A DNA stretch of 64,000 nt from Candidatus Segetimicrobium genomatis (GCA_005888595.1 VBAL01000114.1:573-64572), one strand, 5' to 3'. Shown: positions 39,339 to 62,097, numbered from the stretch's first letter. The notes: a model not told the origin generated them from the letters alone. Numbers and translations: made by a program.

Positions 39339-39501
39339 GTCTTCCAGGTCTACTGCGTCACTTTCCTCCGAGGCTCTTTAGGTAGACTCGGGAGACATGG
39401 CAGACCTGGTAGACGCAGTCGCCAATGGGAACAGTCTGTCAGAAACTGCGGGTCGAATCAACGGCGGGGAAAAGCCGGCGCGGCCTGGAACTTGGGTTCT
39501 G

Positions 39502-41268: not shown

Positions 41269-41269
41269 C

Positions 41270-41362
41270 GGAATTTCGGATTGCGGATTTCGAATTGCGG
41301 ATTTGAACGGCCGGGGATTTCAATCCGCAATCCACAATCCGCAATCCGAAATCGGGAGTGCG
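41270..41362. promoter_or_regulatory. large imperfect hairpin built from ATTGCGGATT-type repeats between fdrA stop and the DUF1116 gene start
   Basis: Left arm ATTTCGGATTGCGGATTTCGAATTGCGGATTT (41274-41305), loop TGAACGGCCGGGG, right arm ATTTCAATCCGCAATCCACAATCCGCAATCCGAAAT (41319-41353). Followed by GGGAGTG RBS and ATG 41365. Confidence 0.7.
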
Positions 41363-41364
41363 TG

Positions 41365-42603
41365 ATGACCATAGACGAAGCCAACCAACTCGCCGTGAAG
41401 CGCATTCTGGACAGCCAGCCCATCCTGGTCGGGATTGCGCCCGCCGCGGAGATGATCCCCGGGATGCGGCGCAATCTGATCCTCCACGCCGGACCGCCCA
41501 TCACCTGGGACCGGATGTCGGGACCTCTTCGCGGTGCAGTCATCGGCGGGCTGATCTTCGAGGGGCTGGCCACGGATGAATCGGGCGCCGTGCGGCTGGT
41601 GGAGCAGAAGCACGTGCAGTTCGCGCCATGCCACCACCATGGCGCCGTCGGGCCGATGGCCGGCGTCACAACCGCGTCGATGCCCGTGTATGTGATCGAG
41701 AACCGGGCGTTTGGCACCCGCGCCTATTCCAACCTCAACGAAGGCTACGGAAAAGTGCTGCGCTACGGGGCATATGGCGAAGAGGTGCTGGCCCGGCTGC
41801 GCTGGCTCCGCGACGTCTACGCGCCCATCATGGGCAAAGCGCTGGAACGGTCAGGCGGGCTGGACATGAAGAGCCTCATCGCTCAACAGATCCAGATGGG
41901 TGACGAGGGACACAATCGCAACAAAGCCGGAACGGCGCTGTTCGCCCGCCTGCTGGCTCCGCACCTGGCGCGCACGGGGACGCGCACGGATGACCTGGCC
42001 GCCGTGCTGACTTATCTCGCGGAGAATGATCTGGCGGTGCTCAACCCTGTGATGGCCGCCTGCAAAGCGTCCATGGATGCCGCGCACGGGATCGCTGGGA
42101 GCACCGTGGTGACGTGCATGGCGCGCAACGGGACCGAGTTCGGCATCCGCGTCAGCGGCCTGCCGGACGCCTGGTTTACGGCGCCGGCAGAGATTCCGGT
42201 CGGGCTGTTCTTCCCCGGTTTCACCCAGGACGACGCCAACCCGGATATCGGCGACAGCACGATCACCGAAACGGCCGGCATCGGCGCATTCGCGATGGCC
42301 GCCGCGCCGGCGATCGTGAAGTTTGTGGGCGGAACCCCGTCGATGGCGGTGGAGTCCACGCTGGAAATGTACGAGATCACCGTCGCGGAAAACCCCGCCT
42401 TTGGCATCCCGCAGCTGGATTTTCGCGGTACACCCACCGGGATCGATATCCGCAAGGTCGTGCGTACCGGGATCACCCCCCGCGTCAATACCGGCATCGC
42501 CCACCGCAAGGCGGGAGTCGGGCAGATCGGGGCCGGGTTGGTGCGGCCGCCGATGGCGTGCTTCGAGCGGGCGGTGGAGGCGTTTGCCGCCACACTCGCG
42601 TGA
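41365..42603 (+). CDS. DUF1116-domain protein (YlbE/AllG-like partner of FdrA)
   Basis: ATG 41365 (MTIDEANQLAVKRILDSQPILVGIAPAAEMIPGM). 412 aa. Co-located downstream of fdrA as in fdrA-ylbE clusters. Family call by recollection of DUF1116 architecture. Confidence 0.6.
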   Translation: MTIDEANQLAVKRILDSQPILVGIAPAAEMIPGMRRNLILHAGPPITWDRMSGPLRGAVIGGLIFEGLATDESGAVRLVEQKHVQFAPCHHHGAVGPMAGVTTASMPVYVIENRAFGTRAYSNLNEGYGKVLRYGAYGEEVLARLRWLRDVYAPIMGKALERSGGLDMKSLIAQQIQMGDEGHNRNKAGTALFARLLAPHLARTGTRTDDLAAVLTYLAENDLAVLNPVMAACKASMDAAHGIAGSTVVTCMARNGTEFGIRVSGLPDAWFTAPAEIPVGLFFPGFTQDDANPDIGDSTITETAGIGAFAMAAAPAIVKFVGGTPSMAVESTLEMYEITVAENPAFGIPQLDFRGTPTGIDIRKVVRTGITPRVNTGIAHRKAGVGQIGAGLVRPPMACFERAVEAFAATLA

Positions 42604-42703
42604 GCCGGCCTTACTCCAAGGCCGTGGACAGGAGCGCGCTCGCGGGCGTCGTACCGTTGTAGGGACCCCGTTCTGACGTCCACCACCGAGGGAGGGACTG
42701 TCT

Positions 42704-44335
42704 ATGCACGGATCGCATGCGCCGGGCCGCCGGCCGGAGCTCCGCATCGTGGCGGTGCTTGTGACCGGTCTGCTATTCTGGTTGCTGTCGGCTCCGCTGG
42801 GAGCCCAGCAGCCCCGAACCGGCGGTACACTGACCTTTATCGTCTCGGCGGAGCCGCCATCGTTTGACGCCCACCGCGAAGTGACCTTCGCGCTGATCCA
42901 TCCGGCTCGTCCACACTACAACCTGCTCGTAAAGTTTGATCCGCTGAATTATCCGAAGGTCGTCCCCGATCTCGCGGAGAGCTGGACGATCTCGCCCGAC
43001 GGGACGACATACACGTTCAAGATTCGCCGCGGCGTGCGCTTCCATGACGGCAGCGTGCTCACCTCGCGCGACATCAAGGCCTCCTACGACAAGATCATCT
43101 TCCCCAAGGGCGATGTGATCAGCGTCAGGCAGGGGGCCTACACGATGGTGGCGTCGGTCGAGGCCGCCGATCCGACCACGGTGGTGTTCCGGCTCAAGTG
43201 GAAGGCGCCGTCGTTCCTGCAGGACGTGGCGTCGCCGTGGAACTGGATCTACAAAGCGGACATTATCGAGAAAGATCCCCACTGGTACGAGCGCAACATC
43301 ATGGGCACGGGTCCTTTCAAGTTCGTGGAGTATGTCCGCGGCTCACACTGGGTGGGCGCGCGGAATGAGGATTATTGGGTGAGAGGCCGGCCCTACCTGG
43401 ACGGCTATCGCGCGGTGTTCATCGGCAATGCGGCGGCACAGGTAAACGCCATCAAGAGCGGTCAGGCCCTGGTGGAGTTTCGCGGGTTCTCCCCGCCGCA
43501 GCGCGATGACGTCGTCCGCACGCTGGGCAGCGGGGCCACGGTACAGGAGAGCGGCTGGTTGTGCAACAACACCGTCGTCTTCAATTCCAGACACAGGCCC
43601 TTCGATGATGCACGCTTCCGCAAGGCCCTCTCGCTGGCGATCGACCGCTGGGGCGGGAGCACCGCCCTCTCCCAGATCGCGTTCGTTGGGCCGGTGGGCG
43701 GCCTGTTGCGACCCGAGGGCCCGTTCGCGACTCCCCAGGCCGAGCTGGAGAAACTCGCCGGCTACGGCCGCGATATCGCCGCCGCACGCGCCGAGGCCAA
43801 GAAGTTACTGGCGGAAGCCGGAGTCCCCGAAGGATTCGAGTTCAACCTGCTCAATCGCAACGTGGAGATGCCGTACCGGTACGTGGCCGTCTTCCTGATC
43901 GATCAGTGGCGGCAGATCGGTCTGAAGGTGAACCACGTGGTGAAGGAGACCGGCCCGTACCTCGCCGATGAGCGCGCGGGAAACTTCGACGCGGCCGTGG
44001 ACTTCAACTGTGACTTCTACGACGATCCGGACCTGCAGCTGGTGAAATTCCTCTCCGTGGAGCTGCCTAACGGGAGCGTCAATGGTCTCAACTACGGAGG
44101 GTACATCGATCGAACCCTGGACCGTCTGTACGATGAGCAGAGCCGGACCGAAGACGCTGCCCGCCGGATCACGGTAGTGCGACAGTTCGAGAAACGGCTG
44201 CTGGACGAGAAGGTGTGGCAAATCTACGTACTCTGGTGGAAGCGCATCATTCCGCATTCCACCAAACTGCACGGATATAAGGTCGGTCCCTCGCACTACC
44301 TTGAAGACCTGCAGGACGTGTGGATCTCCGAGTGA
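42704..44335 (+). CDS. ABC transporter substrate-binding protein, family 5 (peptide/nickel/oligosaccharide DppA/OppA-like)
   Basis: 543 aa. Signal/TM. SBP_bac_5 fold hallmarks. Followed by DppB/DppC-like permeases. Confidence 0.8.
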   Translation: MHGSHAPGRRPELRIVAVLVTGLLFWLLSAPLGAQQPRTGGTLTFIVSAEPPSFDAHREVTFALIHPARPHYNLLVKFDPLNYPKVVPDLAESWTISPDGTTYTFKIRRGVRFHDGSVLTSRDIKASYDKIIFPKGDVISVRQGAYTMVASVEAADPTTVVFRLKWKAPSFLQDVASPWNWIYKADIIEKDPHWYERNIMGTGPFKFVEYVRGSHWVGARNEDYWVRGRPYLDGYRAVFIGNAAAQVNAIKSGQALVEFRGFSPPQRDDVVRTLGSGATVQESGWLCNNTVVFNSRHRPFDDARFRKALSLAIDRWGGSTALSQIAFVGPVGGLLRPEGPFATPQAELEKLAGYGRDIAAARAEAKKLLAEAGVPEGFEFNLLNRNVEMPYRYVAVFLIDQWRQIGLKVNHVVKETGPYLADERAGNFDAAVDFNCDFYDDPDLQLVKFLSVELPNGSVNGLNYGGYIDRTLDRLYDEQSRTEDAARRITVVRQFEKRLLDEKVWQIYVLWWKRIIPHSTKLHGYKVGPSHYLEDLQDVWISE

Positions 44336-44410
44336 CTATCACGATGGTAATCCGGCGCCGGGGGTGGGGGCGATCCCCTCCCGGCGCGGTGGGTCCCGGG
44401 GACGGCTGAC

Positions 44411-45364
44411 GTGGCCCGCTACCTGACACGCCGGCTCCTGCTCATGATTCCCACGCTGCTGGTCGTGGCGGTGATCATCTTTGTCCTGGTGCGCGTGATC
44501 CCCGGGGACATCGTCGAGCTCCGGCTCGTCAGCGGCGGCAGCTTCGTGACCGCAAGTGTGATCGAGGCAGAGCGGGCCCGCCTCGGGCTGAACAAACCCA
44601 TCTGGCGGCAGTTTGTCGACTGGATGGGCGGCCTCCCGCGATTCGATCTGGGCACGTCCATGTGGACGGCGGCGCCGATCGCCAAGGAGATTGCCCTCCG
44701 CTTCCAACTCAGCCTGCAGCTGGCGATCATGTCCACCCTCATCGCGGTGACGCTGGCCCTCCCCTTGGGGATCGCGGCAGCGGTGCGCCGGGGCACCTGG
44801 GTGGACCACCTGGTGCAGATCCTCAGCGTGGCGGGGCTGGCCACCCCCTCGTTCTGGCTCGGTATCTTACTGCTGCTGTTCCTCCTCTCGAATTTCCACT
44901 GGCTGCCTCCGCTGACATTCACGCCGCTGTGGGTGGACCCGAAGGCAAACCTCTTGCAACTCATCTGGCCGGCCCTGGCGGTCGGCTACCGCTATTCGGC
45001 CGTGACCACGAGGATGACGCGCTCAGCGATGCTGGAGGTGCTGCAGGAGGACTATGTCCGCACAGCTTGGGCGAAGGGATTGGCCCAGCGGGTGATCGTC
45101 ATCCGGCATGCCCTGCGGAACGCCATGTTGCCGGTGGTGACGGTGATCGGCCTGGAGTTCGCCTTCCTCATCGGTGGACTGGTGGTGACCGAGCAGGTGT
45201 TTAACCTGAACGGCATTGGGAAGCTGTTCGTGGATGCCATCGCCCGCCGCGACTACACCATGATCCAGGGGTTGCTGCTGCTCGTGGCCACCGTCTATAT
45301 CGTGGTCAACTTCCTCATCGAGTTGTTGTACGTCTGGCTCGACCCGCGGGTCAGTTATGGCTAG
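44411..45364 (+). CDS. ABC transporter permease (DppB-like)
   Basis: N-terminal MARYLTRRLLLMIPTLLVVAVIIFVL typical DppB start. 6 TM helices. EAA loop. Confidence 0.85.
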   Translation: MARYLTRRLLLMIPTLLVVAVIIFVLVRVIPGDIVELRLVSGGSFVTASVIEAERARLGLNKPIWRQFVDWMGGLPRFDLGTSMWTAAPIAKEIALRFQLSLQLAIMSTLIAVTLALPLGIAAAVRRGTWVDHLVQILSVAGLATPSFWLGILLLLFLLSNFHWLPPLTFTPLWVDPKANLLQLIWPALAVGYRYSAVTTRMTRSAMLEVLQEDYVRTAWAKGLAQRVIVIRHALRNAMLPVVTVIGLEFAFLIGGLVVTEQVFNLNGIGKLFVDAIARRDYTMIQGLLLLVATVYIVVNFLIELLYVWLDPRVSYG

Positions 45365-46259
45365 CGGCGTGCGCGCCGTGGCGCAGGCGCGCGGTCCCGC
45401 CGTGGCGGCGGGTCGCCGGGTCCAGCGTCGGTGGCTGGCGAGGTTTGCGCGCCGGTATCCGTTGGGGGCCATGGCTGGCATCGCCATTCTGGGTCTGACG
45501 GTGTTCGCGGGGCTGGCCAACCATCTGGCGCCCTACGATCCGCTGGCGAACGATTTCGGCACCATGTTTGCCGCCCCCGGCGCCCGTCATTGGTTCGGCA
45601 CCGATGCATTCGGCCGCGATGTCCTCAGCCGCATCCTCTATGGCGCGCGCACCGCGCTGCTGGTCGGGTTTGCGGCGTCGCTGGTGGGCGCGACGATTGG
45701 GGGGACCGTGGGGGTCGCGGCCGCCTATTTCGGTGGAACCACTGACCTGATCATCCAGCGTCTGGCGGACATCATGATTTCGTTTCCCATCATCATCCTG
45801 GCGCTGGCGATCGTGGCCATCCTTGGCTCTGGGACGTTCAATCTCGTTGCCGCGATCGCGGTGTCCTTTGTGCCCCGCATTGAACTCGTCGTGCGGGCGA
45901 GCGCATTATCGGTCCGCGAAACCACGTATGTGGAGGCGGCCCGGGCCATCGGCGCCCGGCACTGGCGGATCGTGTTCCGGCACATGGTCCCCAACGTCAC
46001 CGCGCCCTATCTTGTCATGCTCACGGCGTTCCTGGGGCAGGCCATCCTGCTGGAGGCCTCGTTGAGCTTTCTGGGGCTGGGGGTGAACGAGCCAACGCCG
46101 GCGTGGGGGCTGATGCTCTCCGGCGCGGCGGTAGAGTTCGTCCAGCGTGCGCCGTGGATGGCCATCTTCCCCGGACTGGCGATCACGTTCACGGTCCTGG
46201 CGTTCAACGTGCTCGGCGACTCCCTGCGGGACGCCCTGGATCCCCGCCTGAGAATCTAA
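45357..46259 (+). CDS. ABC transporter permease (DppC-like)
   Basis: HWFGTDAFGRDVLSRILYGAR DppC N-terminal signature. 6 TM helices. 8-nt overlap with dppB-like gene. Confidence 0.85.
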   Translation: MASGVRAVAQARGPAVAAGRRVQRRWLARFARRYPLGAMAGIAILGLTVFAGLANHLAPYDPLANDFGTMFAAPGARHWFGTDAFGRDVLSRILYGARTALLVGFAASLVGATIGGTVGVAAAYFGGTTDLIIQRLADIMISFPIIILALAIVAILGSGTFNLVAAIAVSFVPRIELVVRASALSVRETTYVEAARAIGARHWRIVFRHMVPNVTAPYLVMLTAFLGQAILLEASLSFLGLGVNEPTPAWGLMLSGAAVEFVQRAPWMAIFPGLAITFTVLAFNVLGDSLRDALDPRLRI

Positions 46260-46370
46260 GACTCTGAACTTCGGGCCAGTTAGCTCAATTGAGTCAATGT
46301 CTGCTCGGGGCCTGTCCCCTTCAACCCTACGATCCACGAGGCATTTGCGCGGTGGCATAGCTCATCTGAG

Positions 46371-47094
46371 TCATTTTTCATTTGGGGACAGTCCCCACTT
46401 CGACTTGGCGAGAATTCCGGACAGGCCGGTAAGATCGGGGAGCTCGTACGCGGGCGCAAACCGAGGATCGAACACCGCGCCTCCCGATCGATTCACCCAG
46501 ACTGTCCGGATGTGGAACGCTGTGGCCCCGGCGGCGTCGGTCGCGGAGCCGGCGATGTGCAGGAGATCGTCTCGATCCACCCCCAGGGCCTGCAGGGCCT
46601 TGGCGTAGACCGATGGATGGGGTTTGAACTTCCCCCCCTCGGTAGAGATGATGCGATCGAACGCCACGGGCAGCCGTCCGAGCAGCGCCTCCAGCATATC
46701 GGCGTCCCCATTGGACAATGTCCCAAGGATCACGGGAAGGCGTCGGATCTGCGTGAGCACTCCCAGGGTTTCCGGCCAGGGCGGCAGCGTTTCCCACGCG
46801 TCGATGAGGTAAAAGATCTCGTCTCTAGATAGCGGCGGCCGAAGCGCGGCGAGGACGTGCCGGGCGGAGGCTTCCAGCGCAGTCCGGTTTCTCGCCGGTT
46901 CGCGATCGAGGGAGTTGGCGATCAGCAGGTACTCCATGTGGCGCTGCCGCCACGCCCGCGCCAGCGCCGCGGGGTCGCCGCCCGTGCCCCGGGTTTGCAT
47001 CAGCGCGCCCAGCGCTTGTTGCAGACCGGAGACAGTGTCATACAGGGCCGAATAGACGTCGAACGTGATCGCTCGCAGCGCCACGGTTACATCT
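46371..47094 (-). CDS. HAD-superfamily hydrolase, haloacid dehalogenase type II-like
   Basis: GTG 47094 after GGAG. Motif I ITFDVYSALYD (DxY/D nucleophile). HAD core motifs. ORF track start 47291 is an N-extension. Confidence 0.7.
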
Positions 47095-47308
47095 CCGTGT
47101 CCTTCGTGTCTTCCCTTGGTCCTTCGTCCCCTGGTCCCTGGTCCCCGTCGTGTGTCCGTGAGGGCAGGGTTCATCCCCAGGGTGTCGTACACAGACGCTG
47201 TCGCGCAGTCGCGCTGTCGGGCAGTCAGGCGGTCGCGGACACCGGCCATTCCGCGACTGCTCGACCGCGCCGCTGCGCGACCGCGACGCATTTCAGAGGT
47301 GATGACCT

Positions 47309-49326: not shown

Positions 49327-49462
49327 GCAGAGTCTACCCAGTCTCCACAGTCTTCACAGTCTCCCCAGTCCGCCACCCCCTGGTTCATCTAGACATGTTG
49401 ATGTCTTAGACCGAGTAGACTGTGTAGACTGGGTAGACAGGGTAGACTGGGCGTCATAGGCG
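49327..49462. promoter_or_regulatory. large imperfect hairpin built from CAGTCTC / TAGACTG heptad repeats between CoA-transferase stop and accDA start
   Basis: Left arm AGTCTACCCAGTCTCCACAGTCTTCACAGTCTCCCCAGTCC (49331-49371). Loop contains nested palindrome CTAGACATGTTGATGTCTTAG. Right arm GAGTAGACTGTGTAGACTGGGTAGACAGGGTAGACTGGG (49413-49450). ATG 49463 follows. Confidence 0.7.
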
Positions 49463-51238: not shown

Positions 51239-51267
51239 GGGAGGTGGAATCCTCCGGCTAGTTCTGC

Positions 51268-52143: not shown

Positions 52144-52148
52144 CGCCT

Positions 52149-54841: not shown

Positions 54842-54907
54842 CTCAAATCCTTTGGGAAGGAAAAGGCGGTCGCAGGACCCGGCCGAGGGCCGCTGCCGGC
54901 GCCCGCC

Positions 54908-56170
54908 TCACTTGAGGATGGTCATTCCGTCGAGGTCGAAATTGAACTGCCCAAGCAGCCATGTGTCGGACGGCATCTGCTGGGCCGCTTTCACCACCGT
55001 CCCCTTGGAGGGTATCGGCGTGTCTTTGAGCGCCAGCCCGGTTCCGTTGCTGATGAAGGCGTGCTCGAAGAACGGATCCCACTGGCCTTTCGTCATCTGC
55101 TCTCGGCGTTGGGCCACGAGCTTCAGGATCGAGGCGGGGATGAGAGGCCGCGCCTTGGGGCTGATCGCGTCCACCCCCACCTTCTTATTGTTCATGATGT
55201 CCACGGTGGGTTCCACCGTGCCGTCCGCCAGGGTCATGGTGTCGTGCATGCCCAGATAGAGGAGGGTGCGCGGGTTCTGGTTGCTGGCCATCCAGTCCTT
55301 GACCATGCGGTCGTAGAGGATCTCCCAGCGCGTGTCGAAGGAGACGGCCACCGTGTCGGTGCTCGACCATCCGTAGAAGCCGACCACGTCCATATCCTTG
55401 CCGACGAACCAGATCTTCCGCTCCTGCGACACGTCCAGCGGCGAGCCGGAGTCGGTTTGCTGGGTGAGCACGTCCACCTTGTACTGACTCACCAGGGTCG
55501 TGGCGAGCTCTCGCTCTTCCGTGGGTTTGTACCAGTCACCCACGTACTTCACGTACACGGTGACAGGCTTGCCGAGAACTTTGGCCGCGTCTTGGACACC
55601 GAGGAAGAAGCCGGCCGTGCGGCGCAGGACCTGGACATTGGGAAAGGCGGAGACGATGCCGATGTTCCCGGTGCGGGTTAGAGCACCCGCGATGAGGCCC
55701 TCGAGGTAGAGAGCCTGGTACTGCCGAGGGAAGAATCGGATGAAGTTCCTCTTGGTCGTGACGTCGCTGGCGACCACAGAGCCGAAGTAGACGTTCGGAT
55801 ACTTGTCCGCGATGTCTTTCAAGGGAAGTCCCATGAACTCGGCGTTCCCGACGACGATGTTGGCGCCCTGCCGGATGAGTTCTTCGGCATACGGGATCGT
55901 AACGTCCGGTCCGACTTCCTCTCGGTAGACGTATTTCACGTTCGGATACTTCTGGGCAATGCGCTGGGCGGCGCGGTGATGGGCGCCGGACCAGGTGGTC
56001 CCCTTTATCACGCTGAAGTGCAGGATCGCGAGCGTTGCGTTCCTGGCAGCGGCGAAGGCAGACGGGCCTGTCCCGCCTCCGGAACCCGCAAGGAGCACGA
56101 CGAGCAAAAGCGATGGGATGACGATCCGGAGTGACGCGAACCTCGTGCGCCAGCGACGTGCCCGGTCCAT
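54908..56170 (-). CDS. BMP-family (basic membrane protein / PnrA-Med-like) ABC transporter substrate-binding lipoprotein
   Basis: ATG 56170 (MDRARRWRTRFASLRIVIPSLLLVVLLAGSGGG, signal/lipobox-like). Bmp-family fold. Confidence 0.75.
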   Translation of the reverse strand: MDRARRWRTRFASLRIVIPSLLLVVLLAGSGGGTGPSAFAAARNATLAILHFSVIKGTTWSGAHHRAAQRIAQKYPNVKYVYREEVGPDVTIPYAEELIRQGANIVVGNAEFMGLPLKDIADKYPNVYFGSVVASDVTTKRNFIRFFPRQYQALYLEGLIAGALTRTGNIGIVSAFPNVQVLRRTAGFFLGVQDAAKVLGKPVTVYVKYVGDWYKPTEERELATTLVSQYKVDVLTQQTDSGSPLDVSQERKIWFVGKDMDVVGFYGWSSTDTVAVSFDTRWEILYDRMVKDWMASNQNPRTLLYLGMHDTMTLADGTVEPTVDIMNNKKVGVDAISPKARPLIPASILKLVAQRREQMTKGQWDPFFEHAFISNGTGLALKDTPIPSKGTVVKAAQQMPSDTWLLGQFNFDLDGMTILK

Positions 56171-56377
56171 GTCGGCCTCCCCCTCGTCCCTTCTAAAGAG
56201 AGTGTGTAGGTGGGTGTCCTTGCTGGATGTTTTTCGAAGCATCCGCCGATGCGCGACCGTTCTACAATCCGCGCGGTTTTCCCTCTCGGCATGTCAGACT
56301 GGTCTTCCAGGAACGCGCTGATACAAAAGGCCGGGCGCGTGCGCCCGGCCCTCGGCTTGCTCGAATGGGTTCTCGAT

Positions 56378-57508
56378 CTACCGGATGATCCCGGACGGTC
56401 GGATCGTGCCCTTCTGGACTTGCTCGATGGTCCCACGCTCTGAGATCAGATAGAGCATGTTGACCCCTGAGGCGACGTGGTACTGGTCAGCGACCTGCTG
56501 ACTGCCGATCAGGAGTGGAACGTATACCTGCCAGGTCGTGATGAGGGTACGCATGGCGACACGATCGGGCCGCATCAAGATCACCAGACCGGCTACCCGG
56601 CCCCCGGACTTCCGTACCCGCCCGTCCAGGTCGCGAATCAACTGTCGCGTTTCATCGTTGAGCGTCCAGACAAACAGGACGACGGTCTTATGCCCGCGAC
56701 CGATCTCAAGCCGGTGAATGACCCCCAGCCGGTCTTTCAACGTCACTGTCGGCGCTTTCGTCCCAGCCGCCAGCGGAGGCCTGGCGGGAGTCGGTCGCGG
56801 ACGAGATGGCACCGCCGGCTTGGGCTGGGGAACGTGGGACGGCTGCGGTGTCAGCGGTGCTGATGCCTGTGGCTCCGATGCCTGTGGCGCCCGTGATGCT
56901 GATGGCGATTCAACCTTGCCGGTGAGCAGCGAGACGACAAGCGACACCGGTCCATCGGTGACCTCAATGGTCTGATAGACCGATGGGTAGCCCTCACGGC
57001 TGACCAGGACGCGGTAGGTTCCCGGTTTCAGGTCGACGGTGAGGGGCGTTGTGCCGACCTGCCGGTCATCCACCTGCACCTGTGCACCAGCCGGCACGGA
57101 GCGGACGAGCAGAAACGAACTGTCTTCCTGACTCGGCTGCGACGCCGGCGCCGGCCCCGCAGGCGTTCCGCCGAGCATCCGCCCCACCGAATGAGCGTAC
57201 AGGGAGCCCAGCACCGGGACCCGTGCGCTGACCGCCGGCACGCCGCCAAGTCCGGTCAGCAGCACCAGCGCGCCAACCACGGCTGCCACGCGCTTGAGCA
57301 GTGCGGGTTTGAGCAGCTTGTGGAATCTACTGTGCCGCGGCAGAGTCGCCGGGCGAATTTCGGTTGTCGCAAACAGTACGCCGCTCTTCGACAGGTCCGT
57401 GCCGCAGGACTCGCACATCAGGGCTCCGGCCGCGAGCTTCGCCCCGCAGATCGGACAGCTTTGGTCGCCCTTTGGGCTCGCCGTTCGAATGTCGCGCATT
57501 TGTATCAA
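56378..57508 (-). CDS. membrane protein with N-terminal zinc ribbon, one TM helix, PEGA domain and Pro-rich linker (possible anti-sigma / envelope-stress partner)
   Basis: CPICG...CESCG zinc ribbon. TM VAAVVGALVLLTGLGGV. PEGA-like LVRSVPAGAQVQVDDRQVGTTPLTVDLKPGTYRVLVSREGY. Divergent from the ECF sigma factor gene. Confidence 0.55.
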   Translation of the reverse strand: MIQMRDIRTASPKGDQSCPICGAKLAAGALMCESCGTDLSKSGVLFATTEIRPATLPRHSRFHKLLKPALLKRVAAVVGALVLLTGLGGVPAVSARVPVLGSLYAHSVGRMLGGTPAGPAPASQPSQEDSSFLLVRSVPAGAQVQVDDRQVGTTPLTVDLKPGTYRVLVSREGYPSVYQTIEVTDGPVSLVVSLLTGKVESPSASRAPQASEPQASAPLTPQPSHVPQPKPAVPSRPRPTPARPPLAAGTKAPTVTLKDRLGVIHRLEIGRGHKTVVLFVWTLNDETRQLIRDLDGRVRKSGGRVAGLVILMRPDRVAMRTLITTWQVYVPLLIGSQQVADQYHVASGVNMLYLISERGTIEQVQKGTIRPSGIIR

Positions 57509-57671
57509 CCGTCTTCCACTTTACATTCCCGAAAAACTCCGCCTTTGGACCTGTCCAGGCGGCAGACTATGTTAAGGAAGCACATCCGCAGCCGTCCGCC
57601 GGTGGGAACTTTTCCCGGCCGCCGGCGTCTAAGCAGACGAAGCCGGGGCAGTGCGCCGGTGAGGGGATCGT

Positions 57672-58241
57672 GTGACGGAGGGGACCGCTCGCGTGAGCGA
57701 AGAGGCGGACCTAATAGCGAGTAGCGTTGCAGGCGACCTGGACGCGTACGACCGCCTGGTAGGACGCTACCAGGATCGAGTCTACCAGGTGGCCTACCGG
57801 ATCACGGGCAACCATGAGGATGCCTGGGATGCCGCGCAGGAAACGTTCTTGCACGCGTTCCGGTCGCTTCCGCGTTTCCGCGGGGCGTCGGCGTTTTCCA
57901 CCTGGGTGCACCGTATCGCCACAAACGCTGCGTTGGACATGATCCGTCGCCGTCCTCCGCAGCCGCCGGTCTCGCTGGAAGGCGTGACGGTGAGCACCGG
58001 CGATGACCCCGCAGAGGCCGCCACACGGTCGGAGCTTCAGCGGCGGATCCATCGCGCAATCATCTCACTGCCGGCCGAACAGCGCGTGGTGGTTGTCCTG
58101 CGTGATGTGCAAGGACTACCCTACGACGAGATCGCTGCCGCGCTGCGGATCCCTCCGGGTACGGTGCGGTCACGCCTCAGCCGCGGCCGCGAGGCGTTGC
58201 GCCAGCAGCTGGCCGATCTTGCCCCCGCGGCAGGGTCCTAG
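57672..58241 (+). CDS. ECF (extracytoplasmic function) RNA polymerase sigma-70 factor
   Basis: Sigma-70 region 2 (DRVYQVAYRITGNHEDAWDAAQETFLHAF) and region 4 (VVVLRDVQGLPYDEIAAALRIPPGTVRSRLSRGR). GTG 57672 after GAGGGGATCG. Confidence 0.85.
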   Translation: MTEGTARVSEEADLIASSVAGDLDAYDRLVGRYQDRVYQVAYRITGNHEDAWDAAQETFLHAFRSLPRFRGASAFSTWVHRIATNAALDMIRRRPPQPPVSLEGVTVSTGDDPAEAATRSELQRRIHRAIISLPAEQRVVVVLRDVQGLPYDEIAAALRIPPGTVRSRLSRGREALRQQLADLAPAAGS

Positions 58242-58266
58242 CGGTGTGCACGAGGAGGAGCGATAA

Positions 58267-59466
58267 ATGACGATGGGCCATGTGACAGAGTTGCTCTCAG
58301 CCTACCTGGACGAGCGGGTGGGCGCGGACGAGCGCGCCAGGATTGTCACGCATCTGGACGCCTGTGAGTCGTGCCGGGCGCATCTGGAGTCGCTGCGCAG
58401 GACCGTGGCACTGCTGCACACCGCAGAGCCGGTACGGGCGCCGGAAGGCTTCCGCGCTCAGGTGCGTGCCAGGATCGAAGCGCAGCCGCGCCGCGTCCCG
58501 CGCACCCTTCACCTGCCCCGGTGGATCGGGTCGTGGCGGACCGCAGGGGCGGCCGTGGCGGTGGTCCTGATTGGGCTATTTACGGCAAACCTCCTGCGGG
58601 AGCAGTTCCCGGGCGTGGCGCTGCGGCGCGATCGGGTACCCCAAGGATCAGTTCCTGCACCGCTGCCCCCATCCGCGTCTGTGGATCGGGCCGCGCGCGC
58701 GCCGGAGTTGAGCGCCCCCCAGGCTGGCGGATATCCAGTCCCAGGACAGGTTGGTGCGCCTCCAATCCCGGCACCATATAGCCCCGGTGAGCCAGCCCTG
58801 CGGCGCGTGATCCGTACCGCCAGCGTGATGCTGGAGGTAGGCGACCTGGACGAGACGGCGTCGAGGCTGACCCGCATCGCCGAGGTGGCGGGGGGGTTTA
58901 TCGCCGATTCCTCCTACGCGCAGGCGGGCTCGACACCGGAAGGGACGTTTGTCCTGCGCGTGCCGGCCCCGCGCTTCGCCGACGCGCTGTCACAGGTGGA
59001 AAGCCTTGGCCATGTGCAGCAGCGCCGTGTCAGCGGTCAGGACGTGACGGAAGAGTACGTCGACCTGCGCTCTCGCATCCGCAACCTGGAACGCTACGAG
59101 CAGAGACTGCTGGCGCTCGTGGATCGCGCTGCGAAAGTGTCAGACCTGCTGGAGATCGAGCAGGAGCTCGCGCGGGTCCGAGGCGAGATTGAGATGCTCA
59201 CGGGACGCGCGCGATATCTGGACCGGCAGGTAGATCTGGCGATGATTCAGGTGAGTGCACGCGAGCAGACCAGGCAGTCCGGAGGGTTCTGGGATTTGTC
59301 GGGGACGCTGACAAAAATCCAGACTGCCTTCGTGGAGACGATCCGTCAACTCCTGCGGGCGGCCGAAGCCGTGGTCGTCGCACTCAGCGCCCTGGTGCCC
59401 GTCCTCGCGCTGGCCGGCATCGTCTGGCTGGTGGTGCGCCGGGTCCGGCTGGCGCGGGGGGTCTGA
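58267..59466 (+). CDS. anti-sigma factor: N-terminal zinc-finger anti-sigma domain + TM helix + C-terminal DUF4349-like domain
   Basis: HLDACESCRAHL zinc-finger motif. TM AGAAVAVVLIGLF. C-terminal coiled-coil-rich domain with terminal TM. 26 nt downstream of the sigma gene. Confidence 0.75.
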   Translation: MTMGHVTELLSAYLDERVGADERARIVTHLDACESCRAHLESLRRTVALLHTAEPVRAPEGFRAQVRARIEAQPRRVPRTLHLPRWIGSWRTAGAAVAVVLIGLFTANLLREQFPGVALRRDRVPQGSVPAPLPPSASVDRAARAPELSAPQAGGYPVPGQVGAPPIPAPYSPGEPALRRVIRTASVMLEVGDLDETASRLTRIAEVAGGFIADSSYAQAGSTPEGTFVLRVPAPRFADALSQVESLGHVQQRRVSGQDVTEEYVDLRSRIRNLERYEQRLLALVDRAAKVSDLLEIEQELARVRGEIEMLTGRARYLDRQVDLAMIQVSAREQTRQSGGFWDLSGTLTKIQTAFVETIRQLLRAAEAVVVALSALVPVLALAGIVWLVVRRVRLARGV

Positions 59467-59471
59467 CCCGT

Positions 59472-60389
59472 TCAGTCAAGGGCGGAGGGCAGCACCACTC
59501 GTCTGGCCGCGAACAGGTCAGAGACCTGGATCAGGACTACCGCAGCAACGATCGCCAGTCCGCCCGTGATCTGGACGGCCCCCAGCACCTCGTGGAGCAT
59601 CAGCATCGCCGCCGTACTGCCGACCACCGGTTCCAGCGTCGCGGTCAGGCTGGCCAGGCTCGAGGTGATGTGACGCAGGCCGTACAGAAACAGCCCAAAC
59701 GGCAGAATAGTGGCGAAGACGACGATGAAGCCGAACAGCGCCCACTCGACTGGTGCGTGGGCCGGTAGATACGCCTTCCACGGCGGCACGATCAGACTCC
59801 AGGCAGCCGCGCCCGATCCCAGCGCGTACAGCAGCATCGTCCACGAGCCAACCTGCTGGATCCGCCCTCGCCCCAGGATCGCGTACACCCCGAACGCCAC
59901 GGCCGACAAACATCCGCTGAGCAGTCCCAGCGGGTGGATACGGATGCCCTCCCCGCCGGTGACGAGGAAGTAGCTGCCGGTCACCGCGAGCAGGATCGCG
60001 CCGCCCCGCAGCGGCGTGATCGCCTCGCCTTTCGCGGCCCACGCGTACAGCGCGACAAAGACCGGCGCCGTGTACTGCAAGAATAGGGCGGTGGAGACGC
60101 CGGTCAGGCTGATGGTCAGATAGTAGGTGAACTGGGCGGATGTCATCGCCAGTCCGAGCAATACGAGCCGCCCCAACAGGTCCCGCGGTACCCGCAGCGG
60201 ATGTCCCCGCAGTGTCAGGATGACCAGCAGTGTCAGAAAGGACGCAGTCAGCCGGATTTCGACGAGCGTCCACGGTTCGATGCGGCGGTTGAACAGGACC
60301 TTCGCGACAACCCCCGAGACACCCCAGAGGGTCGCCGCGGCCATCACTGCCGCGTAACCGCGCAACCGCGAGTGTAGGGTGGCAGTCAA
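59472..60389 (-). CDS. DMT-superfamily transporter (EamA-like, 10 TM)
   Basis: Two EamA-type 5-TM repeats. TTG 60389 start after GAGGGGAG RBS. Confidence 0.75.
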   Translation of the reverse strand: MTATLHSRLRGYAAVMAAATLWGVSGVVAKVLFNRRIEPWTLVEIRLTASFLTLLVILTLRGHPLRVPRDLLGRLVLLGLAMTSAQFTYYLTISLTGVSTALFLQYTAPVFVALYAWAAKGEAITPLRGGAILLAVTGSYFLVTGGEGIRIHPLGLLSGCLSAVAFGVYAILGRGRIQQVGSWTMLLYALGSGAAAWSLIVPPWKAYLPAHAPVEWALFGFIVVFATILPFGLFLYGLRHITSSLASLTATLEPVVGSTAAMLMLHEVLGAVQITGGLAIVAAVVLIQVSDLFAARRVVLPSALD

Positions 60390-60411
60390 ATGAGCTCCCC
60401 TCGAACGGGTA

Positions 60412-60488
60412 GAACGCAGAATGCAGAAGGCAGAACGCAGAGGGACCCTAGCTGTCTGCGTTCTGCGTTCTGCGCTCTGCGTTCTGCG
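60412..60488. terminator. imperfect hairpin built from GCAGAAC hexa/heptamer repeats overlapping the stop codon of the gene at 60448 (candidate terminator/attenuator ahead of the DMT gene)
   Basis: Left arm GAACGCAGAATGCAGAAGGCAGAACGCAGAG (60412-60442), loop GGACCCTAGCTGT containing the TAG stop (60448-60450 on minus), right arm CTGCGTTCTGCGTTCTGCGCTCTGCGTTCTGCGG (60456-60488). No T-tract. Confidence 0.5.
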
Positions 60489-61326
60489 GAAGCAGAGCGT
60501 CTAGCGTCAGCAGAAATCCTGCGAGCATGTCAGAGCCGGAGGTCTCGCCAAATGCCATGACTCCGCGCGCGGCGATAGCGATACGTTCGGCCTCATGCGA
60601 CGCTAGTGCGGCAACAAGCCGGTGCCAGGATTCGCTGGCCTCTCCGCGCGCTGCGGCCTCGAGGTAGGCCATGCTGATGCGGGTCGTCCGATCGCGCACG
60701 GCAGAGATGATGGCCTGACGCATCACGCGTGAGTCATCAGCATGCAGGGCAAAGGCAAGCAGGCCTCCCACGAGGACATCATCGCCTGAGGGAGTCAACC
60801 CCGGGCCCATGCCGGCCAGTGCGCCCGCGGCACGGCTTACCAGAATCGCGTCACGACGCTGCAGTCCACGAGCCAGTTCCACGATCGCCGCCTCCGCCCG
60901 TCTCTCCAACGCCGTCGTCGACGCATTCGGACGACTCACGGCTCGGGCAAGTCCACCTTCCGGGGCCTCCATATCGAGCAGGCGCTGCAGTGTTGGTAAA
61001 TGACGGCGGAGTGTGGGGAACTGTTCTTCCGGCCATGCTCGCAGCGTGGCGTCCCAGACGGCTGCATCATGCAGTCCGATCTCAATGCCGCTGGAGGCCG
61101 CGACGGCGCCTGGGGCGACTCGATCCTGCCAGGCGTCCATCTCGACGACGAGATTCAGCGGGCCGTTCAACAATGCGGGCGCGACGAGGGCGACGATCTG
61201 TCCATCCAGGTTGAGGTAGCAACTCCGATCATATGTCGCGAGGACGTTGCCCCGGTGAGGCTCAATGAAGAACCCGGCAAGCCGTCGACTGACAGACAGG
61301 ACCCGCAGCAACGCCCTCGCTCTCAT
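60448..61326 (-). CDS. hypothetical protein translationally coupled (ATGA) to the upstream Xdh/Cox small-subunit gene; possible maturation/accessory factor
   Basis: ATG 61326 (MRARALLRVLSVSRRLAGFFIEPHRG) overlaps the coxS-like stop. 292 aa. No confident family. ORF track start 61593 is an N-extension into coxS. Confidence 0.5.
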   Translation of the reverse strand: MRARALLRVLSVSRRLAGFFIEPHRGNVLATYDRSCYLNLDGQIVALVAPALLNGPLNLVVEMDAWQDRVAPGAVAASSGIEIGLHDAAVWDATLRAWPEEQFPTLRRHLPTLQRLLDMEAPEGGLARAVSRPNASTTALERRAEAAIVELARGLQRRDAILVSRAAGALAGMGPGLTPSGDDVLVGGLLAFALHADDSRVMRQAIISAVRDRTTRISMAYLEAAARGEASESWHRLVAALASHEAERIAIAARGVMAFGETSGSDMLAGFLLTLDALLPQNAERRTQNADS

Positions 61327-61994
61327 GTTCGCGTTTCCGCGCTCCGCCCCGAGCCGGCGTGGGGGTTTCCGTGCTTGCGCGCCCCGCCGCCCCGAGCCCG
61401 CGGAACGGGCGTGGGGGTTGCCGTCCCCACTCGCTGCGCCGCGTCGGAAACCGCTTCGACAATACCCTGGTAGCCGGTGCACCGGCAAAGATGACCCGCC
61501 AGCGCTACCCGGATTTCGTCGGCGCTCGGGCTGGGACACTCGCGCAAGAATGCGAGGGTCGTCATCAGAAATCCCGGGGTGCAGAAGCCGCATTGCAACC
61601 CATGGTGATCCCGGAACGCTTCCTGAATCGGATGCAGCCGGTCCGGCGTGCCCAGCGCCTCCACGGTCATGATCTCCTCACCGGCAGCCTGCACGGCGAA
61701 CATCAGACAGCTCCTGACCGGCGCGCCGTCGAGCAGAATGGTGCAAGCCCCGCAGACCCCGTGCTCGCACCCGACGTGCGTGCCGGTGAGCCCCAGGTGC
61801 TCTCGGATGAAGTCCACCAGGGTCATCCGGACCTCTACCTCAGCGGTCTGGGCGACCCCATTCACCTGCACGGTGATCTCTTTGCGCGTCACAAGCGGCG
61901 GGGCCGCCGCCTCCGTGCGCACGGGATTTCCCCGGCGCGCCGTCACAACCCGCGCCTTCGTTGTTCGCCTGACCACGCCCGTGCGCTTCTTCAT
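61323..61994 (-). CDS. (2Fe-2S)-binding small subunit of a xanthine-dehydrogenase/CO-dehydrogenase-family molybdoenzyme (CoxS/XdhC-like)
   Basis: Plant-type ferredoxin Cys cluster GCEHGVCGACT and second cluster QCGFCTPGF...CRCTGY. Start uncertain (ATG 61994 gives ~35-aa N-extension relative to typical CoxS). Confidence 0.8.
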   Translation of the reverse strand: MKKRTGVVRRTTKARVVTARRGNPVRTEAAAPPLVTRKEITVQVNGVAQTAEVEVRMTLVDFIREHLGLTGTHVGCEHGVCGACTILLDGAPVRSCLMFAVQAAGEEIMTVEALGTPDRLHPIQEAFRDHHGLQCGFCTPGFLMTTLAFLRECPSPSADEIRVALAGHLCRCTGYQGIVEAVSDAAQRVGTATPTPVPRARGGGARKHGNPHAGSGRSAETRT

Positions 61995-62097
61995 GTGCTG
62001 TCATTGCGAGGCCCGAAGGGCCGAAGCAATCTCCATTGACGGAGATCGCCACGCGCCTTCGGCGCTCGCGATGACAATGTGAGAGACTGCTCCGATT
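61995..62097. promoter_or_regulatory. nested inverted repeat between coxM-like stop and coxS-like start
   Basis: GTCATTGCGAGGCCCGAAGG (62000-62019) pairs with CCTTCGGCGCTCGCGATGACA (62056-62076). Inner perfect palindrome ATCTCCATTGACGGAGAT (62029-62046). Confidence 0.6.

Follow-up and report, generated by a model that had tools for sequence, protein, structure and literature searches.

Several intergenic spacers of Candidatus Segetimicrobium genomatis, whose relatives are soil bacteria of the Candidatus Sysuimicrobiota/CSP1-3 type, harbor long hairpins with arms built from short tandem repeats. The 64,000-nt stretch of DNA analysed here (the window) raises the question of how such structures arise at gene boundaries: by growth on the spot, by selection of an RNA structure, or by the arrival of copies from elsewhere.

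Structure and location of the hairpins

Five tandem-repeat hairpins, A to E, occur in the window (39326-39418, 41273-41352, 47196-47285, 49331-49448 and 60411-60488). Each consists of two inverted arrays in convergent orientation, predicted to form a stem-loop, with arms of 4.4-5.2 copies of period 7, 8 or 9 according to TRF, an arm periodicity of 0.79-0.92 and a loop of 13-38 nt; hairpin C is a weaker member, its right arm showing a periodicity of 0.65. Eight hairpins with arms of at least 20 nt were detected in the window, four of them with tandem-repeat arms, as compared to a mean of 0.95 hairpins and 0.000 with tandem-repeat arms in 200 dinucleotide shuffles, and of 1.16 and 0.005, respectively, in 300-nt block shuffles. 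Predicted RNA folds range from -41 to -65 kcal/mol (z-scores -4.3 to -8.3), values equalled by none of 200 shuffles. The long intergenic hairpins are real and their frequency is far above chance. A CRISPR array, i.e., direct repeats of 23-50 nt with unique spacers between them, was rejected, the window units being 7-9 nt long, contiguous and inverted.

Hairpin A (arms 39326-39359 and 39385-39418; -46.6 kcal/mol, z -4.7) is built from the 9-nt unit GTCTWCCNN and sits between the divergent DUF3105 (- strand) and AllF (+ strand) genes. Hairpin B has 31-nt arms, 90% complementary, made of the 7-nt unit ATTGCGG/ATTTCGG; its left array of GGATTKC units and its right array of AATCCGC units meet at the junction GGATT-TC-AATCC, with only 2 nt between them, and the corresponding 78-nt insert (41271-41348) lies between the AllF stop codon (41266-41268) and the SD/ATG of AllG (41365). 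Hairpin C (-65.1 kcal/mol, z -4.7), with the 8-nt unit CGCAGTCG/CGCTGTCG, separates the divergent HAD hydrolase (-) and cyclase (+) genes. Hairpin D (-58.9 kcal/mol, z -5.8), with 40-nt arms, 83% complementary, and the 9-nt unit AGTCTNCNC, is located between the stop codon of a CoA-transferase (49326) and the start of an acetyl-CoA carboxylase carboxyltransferase (49463). In hairpin E (31-nt arms, 90% complementary; 7-nt unit AGAACGC; -49.6 kcal/mol, z -8.3), the right arm (60451-60488) corresponds to the last 13 codons (PQNAERRTQNADS) of an AllH-like gene on the - strand, the stop codon of which lies in the loop, with an EamA gene downstream; the same arrangement is found in locus L088 of the loci retrieved for comparison (numbered with L).

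The original prediction had placed this architecture at four sites, three of which (41270, 49327 and 60412) indeed consist of tandem-arm hairpins. The fourth, at 61995, is a palindrome of another kind: as a tandem-repeat hairpin, the interval 61995-62076 was rejected, with a tandem periodicity of 0.31-0.40 and no tandem units. Hairpins A, outside the range of that prediction, and C were absent from it.

Stems of such predicted stability could be taken for selected RNA structures, namely U-tract-independent terminators, mRNA 3'-end stabilisers or translational couplers, with the tandem repeats as a by-product; functions of this sort were proposed for the STRR hairpins of cyanobacteria (PMC2670836). 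The hairpins begin 1-5 nt past stop codons and reach nearly to the following SD, and at site D the window and L005 retain the stability although 13 pairs have changed, two of them in a compensatory manner. An intrinsic (Rho-independent) terminator closes a transcription unit with a short GC-rich stem and a U-tract behind it; it was rejected here, with stems of 30-40 bp and no terminator-like call at any hairpin. Since two of the five hairpins separate divergent genes and no T-run follows any of them, they are not terminators, and the structured terminators of the original prediction fit no better with the three others, which occupy apparent operons. In relatives, the spacers of these three measure only 0-30 nt, so that these bacteria do without hairpins there. 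Moreover, hairpin B is absent from a near-identical strain, the mismatches on the sense strand comprise 14 G:U against 22 A:C and so show no G:U excess, and one-sided changes at site D break pairs in six cases and keep them in four. As an explanation of the hairpins, selection for RNA structure is quite improbable.

Repeat units shared between loci

Each locus had been described as carrying a different repeat sequence, but hairpins A (39326) and D (49331) have a common GTCTNC core with a period of 9. Hairpins of GTCTNC 9-mers also occur at non-orthologous loci, with at least three in the 7.6-kb contig L102, two in L118, and others in L158, L162, L171, L188 and L189. ATTGCGG-like units recur at a non-orthologous locus in L188, and the CGCAGTCG family at another in L158 (6078-6167); units other than GTCTNC are found at only one or two further loci each, a count over the retrieved loci rather than a whole genome. 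As judged from sequence comparison, unit families are common to non-orthologous loci. The reasoning that the sites have no common sequence and are consequently not copies of a mobile element does not hold in view of these recurrences, and it is further contradicted by an all-or-none 78-nt polymorphism between near-identical strains and by the genes that the same arm families enclose elsewhere, both treated below. The same tandem-arm architecture occurs at many retrieved loci of related and unrelated genomes, among which the related G-rich units GGGGATT, GGGGACTA, GGGATCC and CGGATTG are found; a genome-wide process, as originally suggested, is plausible within the range of these retrieved loci.

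The GTCT-family hairpin copies listed all read (GTCTNCNNN)n-loop-(NNNGNAGAC)n, so that their polarity is fixed; their loops, 21 to 462 nt long, are unrelated between copies, and no direct repeat was found in their flanks. Such a polarity could also result from the repair of intergenic double-strand breaks, if a polymerase extended both 3' ends with the same unit to leave a scar of the form (U)n-filler-(rcU)n. It is fixed and strand-symmetric: for 38 of 55 hairpins the 5' arm has G in excess of C, and the bait family accounts for 15 of the other 17; similarly, the Xanthomonas pairs discussed below are 'always' convergent (PMC4692102). Unrelated loops, the abutting arrays of hairpin B, 2 nt apart, and the existence of solo arrays (L102 7527) also agree with such scars. 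On the other hand, one genome contains several unit families side by side, the GTCT family has a C-rich 5' arm, the orientation of the C-rich array at 47095-47170 is opposite to that required by such scars, and arrays around an intact gene are left unexplained. To our knowledge, no break-repair polymerase that adds or slips repeats in this manner exists in bacteria, and this origin seems very unlikely.

The GTCTAC...GTAGAC core, repeated at a helical-turn-like spacing of 9 bp, together with the location of two hairpins in divergent promoter regions, would be in line with arrays of operators or iteron-like sites for a regulator recognizing, e.g., GTCTAC/GTAGAC. Most copies, however, lie between co-directional genes of unrelated functions, apparently devoid of any regulon-like coherence; each genome has many unrelated units, both the variable positions and the number of copies are free to change, and hairpin B is dispensable in a sister strain. 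Hardly any credence can be given to protein-binding arrays.

Gain, polymorphism and turnover of the units

In relatives, the AllF-AllG and CoA-transferase-acetyl-CoA carboxylase spacers measure 0-30 nt (0-29 nt at site D in distant relatives); the window hairpins are lineage-specific gains into these very short (0-30 nt) intergenic spacers. The window, L001 and L004 possess the 78-nt insert of hairpin B and L002 and L003 lack it, yet 6 SNPs in 14 kb are all that separates L002 from the window (99.96% identity), and the state of the insert is uncoupled from the flanking haplotype. The empty site reads TGACGAAATCGGGAG in L002 and L003; in this only filled/empty pair the junction microhomology, and hence the bases shared with regard to a target-site duplication, amount to CG only. 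Hairpin B is an all-or-none 78-nt polymorphism, by insertion or precise deletion, in the present population. A donor copy of the 78-nt insert was looked for and not found.

Depending on the relative, the other sites are filled, filled differently or empty. Hairpin A has an identical copy in L001 and L002, is replaced by a hairpin of CGTGAMT heptamers in L012 and L016, and no hairpin occupies site A in L006, L011, L014 and L017. At site B, L005 possesses a different heptamer hairpin (GGGATCC). Hairpin C is kept in L005 and missing at that site from L006 and L010. Sites A, C and D keep their intergenic position between the window and L005 with differences in unit number or variants: site A of L005 contains two more units on the left and one more on the right (+18/+9 nt), and the orthologue of hairpin D keeps position and stability with changed unit variants. 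Arm indels of 7 and 21 nt also distinguish three loci, the Thermoflexus-like trio, that are about 92% identical. Arms gain and lose whole repeat units, as slippage, one of the processes originally put forward, predicts.

Slippage leads to the view that the hairpins are local palindromic microsatellites, grown from a native quasi-palindrome, with arms matched by intrastrand template switching and no copying between loci. Whole-unit indels affect both arms, and at the same site different lineages have different units. The outer unit of hairpin B complements the native CGAAAT, and the phase of the array runs on into the native AATCGGG; the place of a GATTGAAC hairpin in L037 is taken in L035 and L038 by an ordinary one that contains CGATTTCAAC; direct-only arrays of SD-like units precede start codons, e.g., four copies of GGGGACTA in L012 and the window array at 47095-47170. 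Local growth, however, accounts poorly for the same unit families at non-orthologous loci of several genomes and for a polarity fixed within a family. It also has to contend with arrays tied to a specific gene family, the protein of which co-varies with the arm unit. As the 78-nt insert is all-or-none in strains that are 99.96% identical, and internally heterogeneous, slow local growth would be too slow to produce it. Local growth is unlikely to be the main origin of the hairpins.

Comparison with known repeat systems

Hairpins of this type have precedents. The STRR hairpins of filamentous cyanobacteria, e.g., at hupS-hupL and upstream of hoxW, consist of intergenic tandem 7-nt units belonging to several families per genome, and their function is unknown (PMC2670836). 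The window hairpins resemble them in their intergenic, hairpin-forming tandem units of several families, and a similar architecture occurs in the cyanobacterial contig L199, with HIP1 in a loop; they differ by their host, a GC-rich member of another phylum, by periods of 8 and 9 besides 7, and by their units. In Xanthomonas, GGGAATC heptamers form 70-75 convergent inverted pairs per genome, which keep their position from one species to another and vary in length; these and the GGGGA(C/T)T heptamers of Nostoc show a strong intergenic bias and are transcribed (Rehm et al. 2015, PMC4692102). Convergent arrays on opposite strands, intergenic location and conserved position with varying length are all found in the window. 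Differences reside in the G-quadruplex potential stressed by the Xanthomonas study, the GTCT and CGCAGTCG families being devoid of G-tracts, and in the divergent intergenic regions, under-represented in Xanthomonas (PMC4692102) and occupied by two of the five window hairpins. The window hairpins are the same kind of object as the STRR hairpins and the Xanthomonas GGGAATC inverted pairs, an object already known.

The REP/BIME elements and CGTC- or GTAG-tagged palindromes, dispersed between genes, often form inverted dimers that fold into larger hairpins, vary between strains and occur mostly between co-directional or convergent genes; single REPs are stem-loops of 20-40 nt, the tag of which is unpaired and the loop conserved (Di Nocera et al. 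2013, PMC3733652). Copies of the GTCT family start with CGTC and contain GTAG, but the assignment was rejected in view of the tandem arms of 31-40 nt, the paired CGTC...GACG ends and the unrelated loops. REP/BIME elements are associated with RAYT genes (IS200/IS605-type Y1 transposases); no transposase was found among about 20 window ORFs scanned against Pfam.

Four-helix-bundle genes enclosed by tandem arms

Arms of the GTCT family enclose an ORF of the TIGR02436 family in contig L102 (6186-6729). More generally, 12 of 16 genes encoding TIGR02436 four-helix-bundle proteins (S23p/Avd-like) are flanked by inverted tandem arrays with scores above all 100 shuffles; they originate from four phyla and comprise Chloroflexota-type loci, soil contigs and plasmids of Nostoc, Anabaena, Geminocystis, Picosynechococcus and Riemerella, and as those located after AllG in Anaerolineae are largely orthologous, the independent cassettes number fewer than 16. 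Whenever the arrays of a pair are separated by a loop of about 470-520 nt, a four-helix-bundle gene lies inside. At one site, where AllG is 80-96% identical, the four-helix-bundle proteins of ATCAGTG-armed cassettes have 23-30% identity to those of other cassettes, and identity reaches 71-90% among cassettes with the same arms; in these alignments, the arm unit co-varies with the lineage of the protein that it encloses.

The GTCT family spans hairpins A and D of the window, gene-less copies in L102 and the gene-bearing copy at 6186-6729, and the GAGAATT, GGAGATT and GTAATTG families have both forms in Anaerolineae loci. Gene-bearing and gene-less copies have unit families in common, a relation seen, as far as the window hairpins are concerned, for the GTCT family of A and D. 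No four-helix-bundle gene was detected in the 64-kb window among ORFs of at least 45 aa with a profile built from five cassette proteins, so that the link to the window hairpins rests on the GTCT family and on class resemblance, and their short loops qualify them as gene-less relatives only.

A comparable organization occurs in the intervening sequences (IVS) of 23S rRNA in Coxiella, Leptospira and Salmonella, where terminal inverted repeats surround a TIGR02436/PF05635 ORF and pair into a long stem, as in the cassettes from the retrieved loci. The stem of the Coxiella IVS is cut by RNase III, tandem heptamers of strain-variable copy number precede the S23p ORF in the stem region, and the element is viewed as selfish and tolerated owing to its removal from the RNA by RNase III (PMC4990558). 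Unlike these IVS, the window copies lie between protein-coding genes instead of in rRNA, contain no ORF and have arms made almost wholly of tandem units. Four-helix-bundle genes have also been reported wedged inside cas operons (PMC3936711), and the Xanthomonas heptamer study draws no link to such genes (PMC4692102). The inverted arrays around TIGR02436 genes, the tracking of arm and protein, and the occurrence of the same units without the gene are new here.

A proposed cassette origin of the window hairpins

The window hairpins are, with somewhat better than even confidence, gene-less members of an IVS-like cassette class, i.e., dispersed palindromic tandem-repeat elements. Such an element consists of two convergent arrays of 3-6 imperfect 7-9-nt units, between which full-length members carry a TIGR02436 gene (S23p/IVP, Avd-like), like 23S rRNA intervening sequences. 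It may spread as cassettes or miniature derivatives, by a mechanism creating no target duplication longer than 2 nt, and its copies would subsequently drift by slippage. They would persist between genes because cells can remove the transcribed stem from the RNA or tolerate it there: the analogy of rRNA intervening sequences suggests cleavage of the long imperfect stem by RNase III, which would spare the coding sequence. Any effect on expression, e.g., by separating cistrons or protecting mRNA ends, would be secondary.

Some features fit this cassette origin less readily. Classical miniature transposons keep their internal sequence, unlike the GTCT family, the unrelated loops of which led to rejection of a MITE-type conserved interior, and we know of no transposition activity of the four-helix-bundle protein. 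In addition, the unit resembles the native flank at site B (CGAAAT) and, in L037, the pre-existing stem (CGATTTCAAC versus CGATTGAAC), a hint of local seeding at two sites. Tentatively, and with the odds rather against it, the STRR hairpins, the Xanthomonas pairs, the window hairpins and the rRNA intervening sequences might form one cross-phylum class of selfish cassettes, in which the Avd-like protein would recognize the repeat that brackets its gene and gene-less hairpins would represent non-autonomous miniatures still moving in soil populations.

Other repeats of the window

The simple tandem repeats originally noticed at 47095-47170 were confirmed as a direct-only array (TRF 47112-47146) of 7-8-nt units, GGTCCCY on the + strand and GGGACCA on the - strand. 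The array lies directly upstream of the start of the HAD hydrolase, a gene of the - strand; the same unit makes a hairpin in L171 (11023-11102). In L005, the HAD gene has inverted arrays of a GGGAACGC-type 8-mer unit on both sides. The TAACTGA heptamer arrays of marine Beggiatoaceae, also present in some cyanobacteria, lie mostly between genes, close to start codons, and are inverted in one of 170 sets (MacGregor 2015, PMC4679880); being almost all direct, they resemble the array at 47095-47170 and that at site B of L012.

The imperfect palindrome of about 78 nt at 61999-62076 (GTCATTGCGAG...CTCGCGATGAC; -52.2 kcal/mol, z -6.5) separates a coxM-like from a coxS-like gene. It represents another dispersed repeat family, of which the unrelated contig L102 contains a copy of 90% identity (3777-3854) and L005 a fragment (14958-14980).

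Tandem-Repeat Hairpins of the Window

Five hairpins with arms made of short tandem repeats are distributed along the window (G+C content 62-68%), and they are real and occur far beyond chance. A detector of ungapped inverted repeats of at least 20 nt with at least 78% complementarity, both arms being periodic with an equal period, counted four tandem-repeat hairpins in the window, as opposed to a mean of 0.000 in 200 dinucleotide shuffles and of 0.005 in 300-nt block shuffles. According to the gene placement deduced from GC3-filtered ORFs, Pfam scans and gene calls on public contigs, hairpin A (39326-39418), built from the 9-nt unit GTCTWCCNN, lies between the divergent DUF3105 and AllF genes, and hairpin B (41273-41352), built from the 7-nt unit ATTGCGG/ATTTCGG, between the AllF stop codon and the AllG SD. 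Hairpin C (47196-47285; 8-nt unit CGCAGTCG) is the weakest of the set and occurs between the divergent HAD-hydrolase and cyclase genes together with a direct-only array (47095-47170), and hairpin D (49331-49448; 9-nt unit AGTCTNCNC) between the family III CoA-transferase and carboxyltransferase genes. Hairpin E (60411-60488; 7-nt unit AGAACGC), located upstream of EamA, overlaps an AllH-like gene over its final 13 codons and stop codon. The arms measure 31-40 nt, with a complementarity of 79-90%, and the RNA folds range from -41 to -65 kcal/mol, their z-scores lying between -4.3 and -8.3. When hairpin B is read in a 7-nt phase, its apparent loop resolves into additional degenerate left-type units, and its left and right arrays join at GGATT-TC-AATCC.

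Four sites had originally been described as hairpins with tandem-repeat arms, which is correct for B, D and E; the fourth one, at 61995, is a stable palindrome but lacks any tandem periodicity. The simple repeats reported at 47095-47170 correspond to the direct-only array, and hairpins A and C are additions to that list. The idea that each locus possesses a different repeat is incorrect, since A and D share a GTCTNC core at period 9. As for the proposed function as structured terminators, no T-run follows any of the five hairpins and a terminator scan was empty at the hairpins, which leaves this reading as the least supported part of the proposal.

The AllH-like ORF (minus strand, window 60448-60488) enters the right arm of hairpin E and has its stop codon inside the loop, so that the repeat encodes its 13 C-terminal residues, PQNAERRTQNADS. 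The first ~90 codons of the same ORF overlap a coxS-like gene and appear non-coding, the likely true start being the ATG at 61324-61326. With respect to AllG, the relatives in the genome collection belong to MAGs that carry the labels ANGP1, 'Armatimonadetes CSP1-3' and Candidatus Fervidifonticultor; the latter is assigned to the phylum Candidatus Sysuimicrobiota.

Distribution, Unit Families and Polarity

Outside the window, the detector identified hairpins of this type in Anaerolineales and in Thermoflexus-labelled loci, where as many as 7 occur in 21 kb; their units include AATTACG, TTAATGG, GGATTGG and GAGAATT, and tandem-repeat hairpins also occur in a cyanobacterial contig (L199). On crude gene maps, 21 of 34 hairpins are located between co-directional genes, 5 between convergent and 2 between divergent ones, and 6 are apparently intragenic.

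The repeat units are organised in families. A metagenome scan with four GTCTNC units at 9-nt spacing as a query revealed, among the matches listed, at least three GTCT-family hairpins in contig L102, at least two in L118, and others in L158, L162, L171, L188 and L189; the GTCT-family contigs are from soil and contain 62-67% G+C. Many of the copies listed possess semi-conserved ends, CGTCTAC...GTAGACG, around unrelated loops of 21-462 nt. Units close to those of the window's hairpin B (in L188), hairpin C (in L158) and direct array (in L171) occur within GTCT-family contigs, at loci that are non-orthologous to the window sites by tblastx. Copies of the window-type hairpins appear to have spread between loci.

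The polarity of the GTCT hairpins is fixed, all copies listed being of the form (GTCTNCNNN)n-loop-(NNNGNAGAC)n. Among the 55 hairpins with a nonzero skew, 38 contain more G than C in the 5' arm, and the GTCT family used as bait accounts for 15 of the 17 exceptions. Across the window and the compared loci the polarity is strand-symmetric, the 5' arm being usually G-richer than the 3' arm (~28 versus 3-4 unit families). The CGTC/GTAG motifs raised the possibility of REP/RAYT elements, which was rejected in view of the absence of their structural features. A 53-nt perfect palindrome at the end of another contig (L094) was set aside as a likely assembly artefact.

Gain and Polymorphism at the Hairpin Sites

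Comparison with relatives identifies the hairpins as recent, lineage-specific gains. The spacers between AllF and AllG and between CoAT and ACC measure 0-30 nt in most relatives, and hairpin-filled spacers of 94-137 nt were found only in the population of the window and in the sister locus L005. Depending on the relative, site A is occupied by the window's hairpin enlarged by two units in the left arm and one in the right arm (L005), by a different heptamer hairpin, CGTGAMT (L012 and L016), or by no hairpin at all (four other relatives). At site B, L005 similarly possesses a different heptamer hairpin, GGGATCC, of nearly equal length. For site E, the other contigs stop short of the hairpin.

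Hairpin B is polymorphic as a whole unit between near-identical strains. The exact AllG protein of the window is encoded by four public contigs (L001-L004); the hairpin is present in L001 and L004, and in L002 and L003 an 18-nt spacer remains from which exactly 78 nt, corresponding to window 41271-41348 with arms and loop together, are missing. The empty site reads TGACGAAATCGGGAG and the filled one TGACG[GAATTTCGG...GCAATCCG]AAATCGGGAG, with CG as the only common bases at the junctions. Between L002 and the window there are 6 SNPs in 14 kb, zero of them within ~2 kb of the insert. The state of the insert does not follow the flanking haplotype: one haplotype is common to the window and L002, another to L001 and L003. 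The internal heterogeneity of the 78-nt insert, with its variant units and 90% arm complementarity, makes a stepwise growth since the divergence of the strains impossible; accordingly, the alternatives are the insertion of a pre-formed element and the precise deletion of an older one. A loop made of native DNA caught between two separate insertions is ruled out at this site because the empty allele also lacks the loop. A MITE-style target duplication, sought at this single informative site, would comprise at most the common CG.

Other differences occur around these sites. The 3' end of AllF in L003 (1-279, equivalent to window 40996-41274) is 5% divergent from the window and the 7 kb that follow 0.35%; it is a recombination patch, the end of which adjoins the polymorphic hairpin site. 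In two relatives devoid of a hairpin there, SD-like direct-only 8-mer arrays, GGGGACTA GGGGACTA GGGGATTA GGGGATTA, immediately precede the AllG start codon (L012 9960-10000, L017 3513-3538). In L005, inverted arrays of a GGGAACGC-type 8-mer (14911-14940 and 15649-15678) flank an ordinary HAD hydrolase gene with a 'loop' of 708 nt, of which the window possesses only the HAD-start-side array, at 47095-47170.

Evolution of the Arms

The arms evolve by slippage, in a microsatellite-like manner. In three Thermoflexus-like loci of 90-93% identity, the arm indels measure exactly 7 or 21 nt and often affect both arms. Site D exhibits different sets of unit variants in the window and L005 at an unchanged stability (-58.9 and -58.6 kcal/mol, respectively); the pair changes between them, a comparison of low power, consist of 6 one-sided changes that break pairing, 4 that keep it and 2 compensatory ones. 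As a test of RNA-level selection, sense-strand mismatches displayed no excess of G:U over A:C (14 versus 22). Rfam at gathering thresholds yielded zero families over the whole window, and a tRNA/tmRNA scan of the window yielded none. Complementarity in shifted register equals that in register (I1 versus I5, I3 versus I7), so the arm variants are not clearly mirrored and are uninformative on inverted duplication. Two sites hint at a local seeding from native sequence.

AATTACG and TTAATGG hairpins have themselves received, within their arms, other small elements with long perfect inverted repeats of their own (L037 2759-2948 and L038 ~13790-13880), each in one of three sister loci. Hairpins of the tandem-repeat type thus seem to serve as landing sites for further insertions.

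Four-Helix-Bundle Genes Enclosed by Inverted Arrays

In the soil contig L102, a pair of GTCT arrays (6186-6226 and 6689-6729) surrounds an ORF of 123 aa, and ATCAGTG arrays surround a similar ORF in L048 (truncated copy) and L039 (full copy). NCBIfam assigns these enclosed ORFs to TIGR02436, 'four helix bundle protein', with a weaker similarity to the DGR protein Avd. A profile search detected 14 four-helix-bundle ORFs in the fetched loci and none among the ORFs of the 64-kb window; array pairs with loops of ~470-520 nt contain such an ORF in every case. In an independent sample, tblastn against 72,556 plasmids retrieved 19 records (15 cyanobacterial and 4 from Riemerella), and the eight plasmid genes examined were flanked by convergent tandem arrays (six), direct arrays (one) or none (one). 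Overall, 12 of 16 four-helix-bundle genes are flanked by inverted repeats that score higher than in any of 100 shuffles. Several plasmid genes are wedged between cas genes; in Pseudanabaena galeata plasmid pPg_01 (L216, 46268-46627 and flanks), the gene lies between cas6 and cas4 and is preceded by a long array of (AAAAGCT)n and followed by one of (AAAAGCC)n, both direct, a departure from the convergent rule.

At the Anaerolineae site located after AllG, where AllG itself is 80-96% identical, the four-helix-bundle proteins of ATCAGTG-armed cassettes are 23-30% identical to those of other cassettes, and proteins are 71-90% identical within groups sharing the same arm unit. The arm unit thus tracks the protein lineage, which implies that arms and gene travel, or are replaced, together. 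The arm-unit families of these cassettes also occur as gene-less hairpins at the same or sister loci.

In structure, there is no difference between the hairpins and the arms of the four-helix-bundle cassettes, and the window copies would represent derivatives of such cassettes that lack the gene, or their empty forms. The main weakness of this reading is that the window contains no four-helix-bundle gene and that the GTCT family is its only direct link to a gene-bearing copy. By analogy with rRNA intervening sequences, the tolerance of hairpins between genes may depend on the processing of their stems at the RNA level.

Comparison with Known Systems

Knowledge of short tandemly repeated intergenic sequences dates from 1990 in cyanobacteria and from the 2000s in xanthomonads. 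They serve for strain typing; to our knowledge, their origin and function are unexplained. The TIGR02436/S23p proteins are abundant, and we know of no role for them outside diversity-generating retroelements. Cyanobacterial STRR heptamers form hairpins between genes, with an unknown function (PMC2670836). Xanthomonas genomes contain ~185 GGGAATC arrays, 70-75 of them in convergent inverted pairs, the same orientation as in the present hairpins, and these arrays keep their position across species and vary in length, no function having been found (PMC4692102). The 23S intervening sequence of Coxiella, a selfish element with an S23p ORF and a terminal stem of 28 bp that RNase III cleaves, displays tandem heptamers of strain-variable number at its 5' processing site (PMC4990558). 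The occurrence of 23S_rRNA_IVP genes inside cas operons has been noted without explanation (PMC3936711). A literature search of incomplete coverage found no paper linking four-helix-bundle genes to STRR-like arrays.

The STRR-type architecture is now seen in Chloroflexota as well as in an uncultured phylum from soil, and three results, namely this occurrence, the polymorphism between near-identical strains and the bracketed genes with a tracking unit, merge two descriptive puzzles into one testable hypothesis. From a practical point of view, the hairpins break assemblies, are liable to be taken for terminators or for CRISPR-like repeats, and lengthen ORF calls, as seen in the window for the tail of the AllH-like ORF and for the long ORFs of AllG and HAD.

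Other Palindromic Elements

The palindrome near 61995 (window 61999-62076) is a ~78-nt non-tandem element, GTCATTGCGAG...CTCGCGATGAC, belonging to a second dispersed repeat family. A copy 90% identical, with stem changes that preserve pairing, occurs in the unrelated soil contig L102 (3777-3854), and a fragment adjoins the HAD gene of L005 (14958-14980). Unrelated to the tandem-repeat hairpins are the two to three copies of a perfect or near-perfect palindrome of 24-27 nt, TTCATCGGTGCCTGGCACCGATGAA, contained in a ~130-nt direct duplication at 5766-5920; an A-rich run and GGAGAATGACCCGG come after each copy, and they may represent a duplicated operator or terminator plus gene start.
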